Of a stretch of 64,000 bases of DNA, positions 31,294-50,271 are shown in pieces; within the stretch, counting starts at the first letter, position 1; every line of letters begins with the position of its first letter. Below the pieces are notes generated by a model. It was not told the origin of the DNA and ran no database searches. It saw only the letters and a program-made list of their open reading frames with translations. This DNA comes from Candidatus Marinarcus sp. (GTDB lineage Bacteria > Campylobacterota > Campylobacteria > Campylobacterales > Arcobacteraceae), in contig NZ_CP182357.1 in NCBI RefSeq assembly GCF_048571275.1, positions 1,142,125 to 1,206,124 of the forward strand, in the 5' to 3' direction. The translations under genes were made by a program, and so were the position numbers.

Positions 31294-31797
31294 GGCAGAT
31301 AAATTTTCCCATTTAAGATTTTTATTTTTCCCTCTAATTCATAAACAAATGTTTTTTCAGCATAATTTTTGATGGCCTCGTCGTAGTTGGGATTGTTTTT
31401 ACAATACTCTAAAAACGCATCTTTTTCTTGGCAAAGGGTATGTCCTGATAGTTCCATAACAAACTCATCTATATCATAAATGGCTTGGGCTAAACCCTCT
31501 TTTAAAAGCTGGTTGGTTCCTGCACTTTGATTAATTTGGTGAGGCAAAACATAAATTTTTTTGTTCATATTTAAAGCAAACTCTACGCTTCTCATGCTGC
31601 CACTGTTTAAATCGGCTTGCGTTACAATTAAAATATCTCCTAAAGCTACAACGATTTCATTGCGTGCTACAAAACTCCATGGAGTTGCAAGAAAATCTGC
31701 ATCATACGCACTTAAAATCAACCCCTCTTGTTCAATGGCTGCAATGAGTTTTTTATTTGTAGCAGGGTACTTTGTATGTAAACCACAGGGACTGACC
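31290..31797 (-). pseudogene. dprA: dprA 3' fragment, separated from its 5' part by the transposon
   Basis: Reads (V)SPCGLHTKYPATNKKLIAAIEQEGLILSAY..WSFVARNEIVVALG..ADLNSGSM; joins in frame with the 50267-50537 fragment. Confidence 0.93.
31793..31797 (+). repeat. 5-bp target-site duplication TGACC (left copy)
   Basis: Identical TGACC at 50267-50271, each directly flanking the terminal TGT/ACA. Confidence 0.95.
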
Positions 31798-31843
31798 TGT
31801 CATATACAAAAACAAACTTAACTCTAAATCACAATATTTAGCC
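31798..31843 (+). repeat. tnsA-proximal transposon end with putative TnsB sites
   Basis: TGTCATAT, then ACAAAAACAAACTTAACT (31806-31823), then a degenerate copy 20 bp on (31826-31843, 11/18 match to the right-end site). Confidence 0.85.
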
Positions 31844-31942
31844 AGTCTTGAAAGATTTCCAACATTAATTAAGTTAAATAGATTATATTAAAAAGGTTAA
31901 ATAAATTGAAAAATATACAAAATAAATTAAACATCCTATCTA

Positions 31943-31971
31943 TTGTAAATCTTGACGAGATTTTATATAAT
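31943..31971 (+). promoter_or_regulatory. Putative sigma70 promoter for a leaderless tnsA transcript
   Basis: TTGTAA-17 nt-TATAAT ending 6 nt before ATG 31978; no Shine-Dalgarno in between. Confidence 0.55.
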
Positions 31972-31977
31972 TTAGAT

Positions 31978-32637
31978 ATGAGTGTAAGACAAATTAAAAA
32001 AAGCTATATATCCTGCACAGGATACTTTTCAAGTTATAAGAATAAAAAACAAGTTACTTTTGAATCAGTATTAGAAAGGGATATGTTTATGTTATTGGAG
32101 TTTGATCCAAGAGTTGTTTCATATATAGAACAACCTTTTACACTTCATTATACTTATTATGATGTAAAACCTAGAAAATATACTCCTGATTTACTGATTA
32201 CATATAAAGATAAGACTCAAACAGTAGTTGAAATAAAGTATAAAGATGAACTGCTTTCAAATCAAGAGCTTGTTCAAAAACTATCTTTAGTTCAAAATGA
32301 AATAAAATTACAAAAGCATTTATCTTTTGAAATATATACTGATGAAATGATAAATAAACAATATATGCTAAATCTAAAACATATTTATAACTTTGTAAAT
32401 ATTAAAGAAGATATAGAAAAAACAAAATTGATTGAAAAAATATTAGATAATACTGGTGCCATTACAATACAAGAAGTACTTAATCAATATGATTCAAATA
32501 AAATGAAACAAACTTTTTTTCTACCCTATATTTGGAACTACGTATTTCATAATATGGGAACACTTGTAAATCAATATGAAAAGTTAACAATGAACTCGGT
32601 TCTAAGGAAAGGATACAGACTCAATGGGAATTATTGA
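31978..32637 (+). CDS. tnsA: TnsA-like endonuclease
   Basis: MSVRQIKKSY..TG N-terminus; FESVLERD; YIEQPF; YTPDLL; VEIKY (PD-(D/E)xK). Confidence 0.88.
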   Translation: MSVRQIKKSYISCTGYFSSYKNKKQVTFESVLERDMFMLLEFDPRVVSYIEQPFTLHYTYYDVKPRKYTPDLLITYKDKTQTVVEIKYKDELLSNQELVQKLSLVQNEIKLQKHLSFEIYTDEMINKQYMLNLKHIYNFVNIKEDIEKTKLIEKILDNTGAITIQEVLNQYDSNKMKQTFFLPYIWNYVFHNMGTLVNQYEKLTMNSVLRKGYRLNGNY

Positions 32638-48531: not shown

Positions 48532-48555
48532 ATTTGCATTTTTAGTGAGAATTAC
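48532..48555 (+). repeat. Internal repeat, partial copy C
   Basis: ATTTGCATTTTTAGTGAGAATTAC matches the last 25 nt of copy A with one gap and one mismatch; 4 nt from the tnsE stop. Confidence 0.65.
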
Positions 48556-48559
48556 TATA

Positions 48560-50209
48560 CTATTTAATTTTTGTATATCTTTTAATGCCTAATTCTAGGT
48601 TTTTACGCCACAATTTAATTTTTTCTTCACTCATATCAATTCCATCATGCTTTGTCATAAAAAATTTACTAGCTCCAATGGCTTTTACATCTTCTAACAT
48701 TTGCTTATTGGTCTGATTTTTTAATATATTTATATTAAGCATAGTTTGAACTTGTGATTCACTAAATATTTCAGTAGATATAAAATACCAAGTATTCTTT
48801 TTCCAATAAATGTTATGCTCTACTTCAATAAAGTTTATAATTATATTCTTATAATTAAAATAGCCATATATCAAACGTCTAGCAACTTCTTTTTTAAAGT
48901 CTATAAAAAACTTATTAATATTTGATTCCTCAAAATTATCTAAATCAATAATCTCACTAATAGAAAATTCTTCAATCTTATTATTATCAATAAATGACTC
49001 AAACAATTCAAAAAAGTTTTCTATTTTAAAAGAGTTTTTTGTAATATCGTCATCAAGTAACTTTTGTTTAACTCTATTATTTCCGCTACCTTCACCTGGT
49101 CTATCAAGAGATTCATCTACTTCTTCATCAGTAACCTCATATGTTGTTCTTATATTATTTTGAATAATCTCATTTTTTTGAATGTTAATTTCTGAAAAGT
49201 CATATATATTTTCAACTTTAAATGATTCTTTGGATGTGGTATGTTTATCTGATGGTTTCTTTTCAGTAATTTTACCAGTAATGTGGGAATCTTTTTTTGG
49301 TATTTTTTTAGGTTCATCAGGATCAATTTTTTTAGTTTCTTCTGTTGTATTCTCTTTATAAACCTCGTGTTTTAAATTTTTAAAGTTATATGGTATTGTA
49401 TCTCCATAAATATGAGTAATTAATATAACATCTCTTTCATCAAAGGTTTCAAAATTATCTTTTGAATAAACATTTCCAAGATGGATTATTTTGCATTGAA
49501 TAATAAAATCTTCATGATCTTCAAAAGGAAAGCCCATATGAATTGGAATATAAAGGTTATCTATATGTTTATACTTTTCCTTGTAATGCGTTGTTTGTTT
49601 ATAAAAAAACATAAAATTTTTTTTCGATATCTCATTTGTAATCATTCTTGCAATTAAAGGTACTTGCTCATCTTTTAAAGTTTTTTTAGTTTTAATATAC
49701 AATGTATCGCCTATAAATTTGAAACCACTTTCTTCATAATATAATGTTGAGAATGATCCATTAGATAAAGCATTTTTTATACTTGATGACACAAAGTAAT
49801 ATCTATTTGCAACAACATAATTGGGTATCATATAAATATATCTTTTAGTTTCATAGAAGTAGCATTTTTGATTATAAAAAGCATCGCCTTCTTCGATTCC
49901 TATGTCATTAGGAAAACGAATATATTTTTTTATTTGAAAAGAATTTTTACTTGTAACTTTCTTTTTTGGAACAAATAACTTTTCGATTTTCATTCTATTC
50001 TCATGTTCTAAAGCATAGTTAGAATATACATTACCTAAAATATATTTACCTCTTAATTCTTCTGGTAATAGTAGTTCTTCATATTTTTCTAAACTATCAA
50101 TATCTTGAAAAATCACTTTATATCTATGAGGGTATTGGCAATTAATCTCATTAACTGCGATTAGTTTAAATTTGTTATTTGGATAATCTTCAAAACATTT
50201 TATTTTCAT
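48560..50209 (-). CDS. tnsE: TnsE-like target selector at the distal end of the element
   Basis: YMIPNYVVANRYYFVSSSIKNAL resembles the TnsE IPxLELARxxF motif; LIARMIT..F, GFPF, acidic linker and C-terminal IINFIEVE; ATG 50209 with GGAG RBS. Confidence 0.65.
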   Translation of the reverse strand: MKIKCFEDYPNNKFKLIAVNEINCQYPHRYKVIFQDIDSLEKYEELLLPEELRGKYILGNVYSNYALEHENRMKIEKLFVPKKKVTSKNSFQIKKYIRFPNDIGIEEGDAFYNQKCYFYETKRYIYMIPNYVVANRYYFVSSSIKNALSNGSFSTLYYEESGFKFIGDTLYIKTKKTLKDEQVPLIARMITNEISKKNFMFFYKQTTHYKEKYKHIDNLYIPIHMGFPFEDHEDFIIQCKIIHLGNVYSKDNFETFDERDVILITHIYGDTIPYNFKNLKHEVYKENTTEETKKIDPDEPKKIPKKDSHITGKITEKKPSDKHTTSKESFKVENIYDFSEINIQKNEIIQNNIRTTYEVTDEEVDESLDRPGEGSGNNRVKQKLLDDDITKNSFKIENFFELFESFIDNNKIEEFSISEIIDLDNFEESNINKFFIDFKKEVARRLIYGYFNYKNIIINFIEVEHNIYWKKNTWYFISTEIFSESQVQTMLNINILKNQTNKQMLEDVKAIGASKFFMTKHDGIDMSEEKIKLWRKNLELGIKRYTKIK

Positions 50210-50220
50210 CAATATTCTCC

Positions 50221-50266
50221 AGTTAAGTTTTTTGTTGTTGAGTTAAGTTTTTTGTTGTATATGACA
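50221..50266 (-). repeat. tnsE-proximal transposon end with two tandem TnsB sites
   Basis: AGTTAAGTTTTTTGTTGT at 50221-50238 and 50241-50258 (20-bp period), then ATATGACA. Confidence 0.92.
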
Positions 50267-50271
50267 TGACC
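50267..50271 (+). repeat. 5-bp target-site duplication TGACC (right copy)
   Basis: Matches 31793-31797. Confidence 0.95.

Follow-up and report, generated by a model that had tools for sequence, protein, structure and literature searches.

The DNA analysed here, called the window below, is a stretch of 64,000 nucleotides from the chromosome of Candidatus Marinarcus sp. (NCBI RefSeq assembly GCF_048571275.1, contig NZ_CP182357.1, positions 1,142,125 to 1,206,124 of the forward strand). It carries a Tn7-like transposon of 18,469 bp that splits the gene dprA at codon 92. The element occupies positions 31798-50266 and lies between two perfect copies of a 5-bp target-site duplication, TGACC, at 31793-31797 (left copy) and 50267-50271 (right copy). 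Both ends open with TGTCATAT, their first 27 nt match as inverted repeats at 25 of 27 positions, and the termini are of the TGT...ACA type. When positions 31798-50271 are deleted, the flanks fuse into a single uninterrupted minus-strand open reading frame (ORF) of 259 amino acids (aa), which matches Pfam DNA_processg_A at 2e-52 and is DprA. Because this deletion restores an intact dprA ORF, the boundaries of the element are beyond chance. The 3' part of the gene (31290-31797, minus strand) holds codons 92-259 and the stop, and tblastn aligns it at 100% with residues 92-259 of the ORF so restored; the 5' part (50267-50543, minus strand) holds codons 1-92 and includes the right TGACC copy.

An earlier note on this DNA had described an element of 18.5 kb with exactly definable ends and a 5-bp duplication, more AT-rich than its flanks and situated in a Campylobacterota chromosome. 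That description is borne out by the ends, the TGACC copies, the restored dprA ORF, domain searches and relatives of the element. The GC content is 26.7% within the element and 34.2% and 34.0% in the left and right flanks, and the flanking genes are syntenic with those of Aliarcobacter lanthieri (50-84% identical), in agreement with the proposed host group. The insertion inside dprA and the defence-island cargo, both absent from the earlier note, are the most informative features of the locus.

The right, tnsA-proximal end (31798-31934, plus strand) begins with the terminus TGTCATAT (31798-31805), which is followed by the TnsB-type site R1 (31806-31824). A search of the window finds this 19-nt site as a single copy at the tnsA end, matching the consensus at 17 of 19 positions. 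When the end is aligned with relatives (8 related ends), four conserved TnsB-type sites emerge: R1, which is plain in the window, and R2 (~31862-31879), R3 (~31885-31902) and R4 (~31917-31934), which are degenerate in the window and conserved in position across the 8 related ends. The start codon of tnsA falls between the third and fourth of these sites. The weak internal repeats at 31864-31907 had been considered as inverted operator-like sequences, a reading that was rejected since the alignment with relatives identifies them as directly oriented TnsB-type sites. The left end (50213-50266, minus strand) contains a GGAG ribosome-binding site, two TnsB-type sites (50221-50238 and 50241-50258) that are 100% identical, head to tail and 20 bp apart, and the terminus ATATGACA (50259-50266); its architecture recurs in relatives. 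The 8-bp termini followed by TnsB-type sites that had been proposed from the sequence are thus present, with the correction that, on alignment with relatives, the tnsA end has four conserved sites and not one. A loose search of the whole window with a 15-mer (at most 3 mismatches) gave no enrichment (12 copies found, 13.8 expected); four copies have 2 mismatches or fewer, and three of these are at the ends of the element. Scans with Rfam and for tRNAs and tandem repeats detected neither RNA genes nor a CRISPR-like array.

The right end leads into four genes on the plus strand, which the same note had reported as unbroken and with catalytic motifs; open ORFs, Pfam domains and aligned catalytic residues confirm this. 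The first, tnsA (31906-32637; 243 aa, TTG start), encodes the endonuclease subunit of a heteromeric transposase, with matches to Tn7_TnsA-like_N (3.5e-13) and TnsA_C (1.4e-4), and its PD...ExK residues are kept in an alignment with PseCAST TnsA. The DDE transposase gene tnsB (32624-34480; 618 aa) has the Pfam domains rve and Mu-transpos_C, and its IDHT, DNG and HVER motifs align with the DDE triad of TnsB from Tn6677, a type I-F3 CRISPR-associated transposon (CAST). This Tn6677 protein is also the closest solved structure (7e-52, against 1.4e-20 for Tn7 TnsB). A TniB-type AAA+ regulator of 313 aa is encoded by tnsC (34473-35414; Pfam TniB 2.2e-59), with Walker A GSSNNGKT and Walker B IIIDE. 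The last gene, tniQ (35411-36538; Pfam TniQ 4e-19), encodes a short core-type target selector of 375 aa. Its best match is 53% identical, about 40 full-length relatives were found, and eight invariant Cys/His residues in two clusters are unchanged in 37 relatives. With heteromeric TnsA/TnsB, the element is an intact Tn7-like transposon, and all structural criteria examined place it in the Tn7 family.

Insertion positions in dprA and target selection

Is the position in dprA peculiar to the window element, or is it shared by its relatives? The contexts of TniQ relatives were collected from single look-ups, species-representative genomes and metagenomes, and a target class was assigned in those cases in which the DNA beyond the tnsA end could be seen and identified. 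On this basis, 14 related elements lie in dprA in other Campylobacterota, giving 15 insertions with that of the window. Six of them (site B: the window, L001 from Aliarcobacter lanthieri, L002, L004, L011 and L014) have their junction 13-15 nt ahead of the codons that specify G(L/I)(D/H)..YP, and the window junction is within 1 nt of the five others. The most conserved DNA at this site, TAyCCnGCnnnnAATAAA, is found 28-48 nt from the junction. The other nine (site A: L003, L005, L006, L007, L027, L031, L037, L044 and L048) have their junction 34 nt, and once 38 nt, before the codons for SGxAMGVDAIAH. On the right-end side, both positions have a strongly conserved block of motif codons no more than ~70 nt away from the junction, at 31-72 nt in site A and at 13-50 nt in site B; Tn7 TnsD binds in a similar distance range. 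The tnsA end points toward the 3' part of dprA in 15 of 15 insertions. The hosts, the flanking sequences and the duplicated pentamers vary (in L003, a perfect 5-bp duplication reads ACGAG), and the 15 insertions are therefore independent events. As judged from these junctions, dprA appears to be a dedicated landing site of the element family.

Which protein chooses the site? Neighbour-joining trees of TniQ and TnsB were built from loci with a mapped target only. In the TniQ tree the site-B elements form a clade (bootstrap 99/100), the split between dprA-inserted and comM-inserted elements is found in 100/100 replicates, and site A is a paraphyletic grade; in the TnsB tree site B is never monophyletic (0/100). 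Between the site classes, TniQ is 37% identical in its C-terminal half and 46% in its N-terminal half. The only genes common to the related elements are those for TnsA, TnsB, TnsC, TniQ and a TnsE-like protein, and the genes that follow tniQ are not conserved. On these data, TniQ is the probable determinant of the insertion position.

Several observations weigh against a TniQ that reads the target by itself. The structural model of TniQ (pLDDT, the predicted local distance difference test score, 86) is matched over its whole length, with probability 1.0, by CAST TniQs and TnsD, and shows no additional DNA-binding extension of the kind found at the TnsD C-terminus. In Tn6022, a TniQ of 369 aa requires TnsF, which binds the target, and Faure et al. 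2023 (PMC10293859) take the view that TniQs this short cannot choose a target by themselves. The same authors noted many short TniQs without an identifiable partner and suggested that selectors are recruited in trans. TniQ might therefore be only an adaptor, at 375 aa and with its whole-length match to core-type CAST TniQs, while a partner recognises dprA as TnsF serves Tn6022; such a partner could come from a gene elsewhere, from the host, or from a non-conserved gene of the element. We consider this unlikely, although it is the strongest of the alternatives. A tblastn search with the protein encoded at the TnsF position in L091, a Tn6022-type element of Acinetobacter that a tblastn search with TnsB had brought up, found no homolog in the 64-kb window or in any dprA-family locus, and one in L086 only. 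Beyond the five shared genes the elements have no gene in common, and the insertion position follows the TniQ clade and not TnsB, with the C-terminal half of TniQ the most diverged between the site classes.

The explanation that we regard as probable is that a Tn6022-related, intact transposon of the Tn7 family has homed into the dprA coding sequence by a TniQ-directed mechanism, with consequences for its host that are considered below. The element would transpose by cut and paste. TniQ would recognise conserved DNA that encodes the DprA motif G-L/I-D..YP..N; in the window, the putative recognition block is at 31749-31784 (minus strand), where the codons G-L-H..Y-P-A-T-N-K-K are on the tnsA-end side, 14-49 nt away from the point of insertion. 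Once bound, TniQ would recruit TnsC, TnsC would activate TnsAB, and insertion would take place at a fixed distance.

Tn7-type elements are models of precise target choice and programmable insertion tools. The dprA family would add a compact five-gene system that takes a short conserved coding motif as its target without TnsD, TnsF or CRISPR. Its natural variants move the insertion point by tens of bases, and these shifts correlate with changes in one small protein, TniQ. Swaps of TniQ variants make the reading of DNA by a short TniQ directly testable.

Mobility and the far-end protein

The element retains five open transposition ORFs, the catalytic residues, two complete ends and a perfect duplication. 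Set against these signs of an active element, the only sequencing runs that bear its junctions are sediment metagenomes, in which it is found on a single contig at uniform depth, with no differences across it; the element is fixed there, and no empty-site or other population variant was seen in these runs. The 'joints' reported for the metagenome runs were spurious, with 21-23 nt only on one side. Precise empty sites are not an expected product of cut-and-paste transposition, and their absence is therefore of little weight; the population data neither support nor refute current activity, which the earlier note had thought possible in an element that it took to be recent. The element could nevertheless be an immobile relic, a fixed genomic island with dead transposition machinery, and some of its relatives have indeed decayed. 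L001 (6547-7217; GCA_000648635.1), a dprA-inserted copy in a cultured species, is probably decayed because its tnsA is split into two ORFs of 102 and 114 aa, and L092 keeps only the left end, tnsE and dprA. Given the open reading frames, complete ends and perfect duplication of the window element, we think that a relic is improbable, only a little more so than the adaptor model for TniQ.

The fifth transposition gene lies at the far end of the element (48560-50212, minus strand), where it is read inward, 54 bp inside the left end. Its product of 550 aa has no match in Pfam, NCBIfam or PADLOC. Members of its conserved family share 52-62% identity with the window protein; a homolog with 25% identity occupies the same position in L003, and the gene is also found at this position in L020, L023, L030, L046 and L054. 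A sequence profile of the family gave only chance matches, and no TnsE, against all sequences in the PDB, and Pfam TnsE_C was found in one of 13 members, at 9e-4. Sequence comparison therefore left the relation to TnsE unsettled, and structure prediction with a Foldseek search was used. In an AlphaFold model made from an alignment of 13 sequences, the seven best PDB matches are all the C-terminal domain of Tn7 TnsE (5d17, 5d16, 9d5l), with probability 0.99-1.0 and a target TM (template modelling) score of 0.55-0.63, and all other matches have a probability of at most 0.25. The model thus supports a TnsE C-terminal fold for this protein. The earlier assignment of the far-end gene as E gains support both from this fold, since TnsE domains are the only confident matches in the PDB, and from the same arrangement having been published for Tn6022-like elements.

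Two points count against a working TnsE pathway. The mean pLDDT of the model is 59, so that it is usable at the C-terminus only (the N-terminal part, which in TnsE comprises PriB-like OB folds and the clamp interaction, is mostly below 70), and tblastn with TnsB found no close plasmid-borne relatives (best match at most 40% identity), so that the pathway is without direct support for the window element. Might the protein, then, share only a DNA-binding C-terminal fold with TnsE and have another role, for example in regulating the element or its dprA partner gene? The negative profile search, the single TnsE_C match among 13 members and the low confidence of the N-terminal two-thirds of the model would fit this idea, as would four relatives in which the tnsE-like gene is translationally coupled to a full-length dprA. 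We judge it distinctly improbable, since the structural matches single out TnsE C-terminal domains so sharply from everything else. Tn7 TnsE has ~540 aa, close to the 550 aa of the window protein. Both size and position fit the remote TnsE of Tn6022-like elements (PMC10293859). As a second selector, the TnsE-like protein would provide a pathway into replicating conjugative DNA. That the position in dprA is itself an accident, the outcome of random or TnsE-type insertion instead of site-specific homing, is exceedingly unlikely and effectively refuted by the mapped junctions of the relatives, with 15 insertions at two nucleotide-precise positions, in a single orientation, and in different hosts with different duplications.

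Cargo and predicted consequences for the host

The DNA between tniQ and the tnsE-like gene is largely of the defence type. Its longest unit is a complete type I Wadjet operon on the minus strand (40540-47278), with jetA at 45881-47278, jetB at 45237-45881, jetC at 41666-45277 and jetD at 40540-41706. PADLOC identifies JetA1 (4.7e-59), JetB1 (5.4e-38), JetC1 (2.9e-171) and JetD1 (2.7e-79), and Pfam JetA, DUF4194 and JetD_C were matched. Wadjet restricts plasmids. All four jet genes are present in the canonical order and with strong model matches; the operon differs from the canonical four-gene system in a gene for a ParB-like protein (47279-48079, minus strand; ParB_N 2e-17, HTH_ParB, TIGR00180 1.2e-29) that abuts jetA upstream. 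This gene ends exactly at the start of jetA, and its co-transcription with Wadjet is possible. An ORF of 69 aa (48088-48297, minus strand) lies upstream of the ParB-like gene.

Closer to tniQ, an Endonuclease I family nuclease (36909-37652, plus strand; Endonuclease_1 5.6e-37) begins with a signal-peptide-like N-terminal sequence, MKLLSVILLLIVNLSFA, and is predicted to be secreted. It is followed by a two-gene candidate defence system, PDC-M43 (37652-39401, plus strand), which consists of a receiver-like protein (37652-38305; PDC-M43A 1.8e-10) and a HATPase_c protein (38316-39401; PDC-M43B 8.5e-21). A DUF2188 protein of 72 aa (39916-40134, minus strand; DUF2188 6.7e-16) matches PDC-S16 at 9.6e-24. 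Directly downstream of its gene is a Cys/His-rich ORF, also of 72 aa and without a family match (39694-39912, minus strand), and the two may form a pair. The remaining ORF, of 93 aa (36665-36946, plus strand), has no family match and no homolog in the related loci. According to Benler et al. 2021 (PMC8649781), Tn7-like elements carry defence systems more often than any other cargo.

What would the insertion mean for the host? Natural transformation depends on DprA, which loads RecA onto the single-stranded DNA that enters the cell and also recruits ComM (PMC12378983, PMC12012524). The window holds only the two fragments of dprA, and the host would lose DprA and, as a result, natural transformation. 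We predict that the host is transformation-deficient unless a second dprA is present elsewhere in the 2.58-Mb genome; such a second copy could exist, and would count against this consequence of the insertion. The loss of transformation may in turn shield the element from removal by recombination with element-free DNA. There is a precedent in the related AbaR/Tn6022 islands, which, by disrupting comM, reportedly manipulate transformation and favour their own fixation (PMC11441513). The cargo (Wadjet, the secreted nuclease, PDC-M43 and PDC-S16) would further restrict incoming DNA, and by analogy it may fit the same theme as the disruption of dprA. In Campylobacter jejuni, periplasmic or secreted nucleases on mobile elements, such as Dns of CJIE1, reduce transformation (PMC12378983).

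Known transposons and related loci

The known elements that most resemble the window transposon are Tn6022 and the AbaR backbone of Acinetobacter, which share the order tnsA-tnsB-tnsC (TniB-type)-short tniQ at the right end and a remote tnsE on the opposite strand at the left. In the Tn6022-like layout, ABC-Q occupies one end and the other has a remote TnsE, whose identity was confirmed by structure (Faure et al. 2023, PMC10293859). The earlier note had stressed that this layout differs from that of prototype Tn7. The difference stands; the layout is not new, having been published for Tn6022-like elements (PMC10293859), and a described family with the same layout, which the note had itself named as evidence against its claim, was in part what was found. 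Tn6022 also inserts inside a natural-transformation gene and not downstream of a housekeeping gene, and distant TniQ relatives of the window element are, like Tn6022, located in comM. In pairwise comparison with one Acinetobacter Tn6022-type element, identity is 29% for TnsA, 35% for TnsB, 36% for TnsC, and 32% for TniQ over half its length. In contrast to Tn6022, TnsF, a zinc-finger protein with an inactivated tyrosine recombinase encoded after the short tniQ, was not found in the window or the dprA-family loci; the target is dprA and not comM; and the dprA family uses at least two, possibly three, fixed positions by means of different TniQ clades. The window element works like a Tn6022-type element but lacks two of its defining features, TnsF and the comM target.

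With prototype Tn7 the element shares the TnsA/TnsB transposase, an AAA+ TnsC, a selector with a TniQ domain and a putative second selector of the TnsE type, as well as the 5-bp duplication, the TGT termini and several directly repeated TnsB sites per end. Both elements also insert in one orientation, with a constant spacing to a conserved coding motif and the right end turned toward the sequence that is recognised. Whereas tnsABCDE form one operon in Tn7, tnsE is here 12 kb away, on the other strand and at the opposite end. The TnsC is short and TniB-type (313 aa) and the TniQ has 375 aa, in place of the long TnsD with its DNA-binding extension; and attTn7 lies downstream of glmS, so that the target is spared, while dprA is destroyed. 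Type I-F3 CASTs such as Tn6677 have the closest TnsB among solved structures and TniQs whose fold matches that of the window protein. Domain, PADLOC and repeat scans of the element found no Cas domains, no cas genes and no CRISPR array. Elements of the Tn5053/Tn402 type (TniA-TniB-TniQ-TniR) have a similar TniB-type ATPase and short TniQ; the window element differs from them in the presence of TnsA and in its target, a motif in a gene instead of a res site. No resolvase family was matched among the ORFs searched in the domain scans, while Tn5053/Tn402 has TniR.

The basic machinery is ordinary. For dprA as an attachment site or as a mobile-element target, searches of the open-access literature found no earlier report; they covered Benler et al. 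2021 and its supplement, Faure et al. 2023, and a 2025 review of competence. The table of competence genes hit by mobile elements in that review lists pilB, pilQ, comFA, comEC, comM and ssbB among others, and does not list dprA. With the present element, dprA joins the competence genes that are targeted by mobile elements, and two sister transposon lineages are tied to two interacting steps of one pathway, DprA and ComM.

Other targets are found among more distant relatives. TniQ relatives with 25-36% identity lie in comM, identified by Pfam Mg_chelatase, in L008, L010, L065, L068 and L089. These comM-targeting relatives, which come from Campylobacterales and a Peptococcaceae metagenome-assembled genome (L008 2328-7849, L010 5649-11140, L065, L068, L089), have no TnsF gene after tniQ. 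In L086 (3146-4327), a TnsF homolog of 26% identity lies upstream on the other strand, unlike the published Tn6022 arrangement. In sister TniQ clades, the left end directly adjoins one of two host genes, argJ at its stop codon (Pfam ArgJ 3e-82) or mnmG/gidA at its 3' end (GIDA 1e-160); such junctions were mapped in L020, L023 (~18340), L030, L046 and L054, and in L067 (~16620) and L087. Together with dprA and comM, the wider Campylobacterota group has at least four host genes as targets.

Some relatives carry a dprA of their own. In four contexts (L099 3920-6380; L095 6960-9427; L100 4281-6700; L092 9750-12429), the closest homologs of the TnsE-like gene in the window each precede a full-length dprA (260-261 aa), with a stop/start overlap of ~22 nt. 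Is this extra dprA simply a host gene? This was rejected for L099 and L095. L099 has, in order, a host dprA 5' fragment (site A), the left end, tnsE, dprA and defence-type cargo, and its dprA copy is inside the element because cargo follows it; in L095 the tnsE-dprA module is not in a dprA context. Identity among the element-borne dprA copies is 67-82%, and among their TnsE partners 52-74%; the window element and L097 have no element-borne dprA. Some members of the family thus appear to bring a replacement for the gene that they break, which suggests replacement of the function and not only its disruption.

L092 (9522-16300), with L093 alike, shows what may be a third position in dprA. Here, the host dprA 5' fragment is of another allele, ~55% identical, and is cut after GVDA; it is followed by a left end with an extra ~200 bp, tnsE, full-length dprA, and the host-syntenic genes for NhaA, a Mur ligase, TrkA and TGT. 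No tnsABCQ and no right end are present at the locus. We conjecture that L092 is the remnant of a deletion by recombination between the element-borne dprA and the host 3' fragment. Taken further, these loci might belong to a Campylobacterota lineage of Tn7-type elements, sister to the comM-targeting ones, in which a short TniQ is the sole selector (with no TnsF and no TnsD-like extension) and has been re-aimed at two or three positions in dprA. Such a lineage would control host transformation by knockout of DprA, as in the window, or by a replacement dprA co-transcribed with tnsE, as in its sisters. We put this forward tentatively, as an attractive possibility that falls somewhat short of being probable.

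Two further features of the related loci concern the DNA at the element ends. Directly next to the left end in L095 is a type II-C CRISPR-Cas9 system (644-6900), which comprises cas9, cas1, cas2 and a long repeat array with a 36-nt unit. In several relatives, the terminal site of the right end is separated from tnsA by a gap of 1.3-3.8 kb (L003 2766-6560, L002 4467-6551, L006 5223-6585, L007 3272-6546). This DNA could be cargo, secondary insertions in the right end, or tandem remnants. The gap of L006 contains an insertion-sequence-type transposase, and that of L003 contains a pair of genes for an AAA+ ATPase and an S8 peptidase, with further TnsB-type sites just upstream of tnsA.

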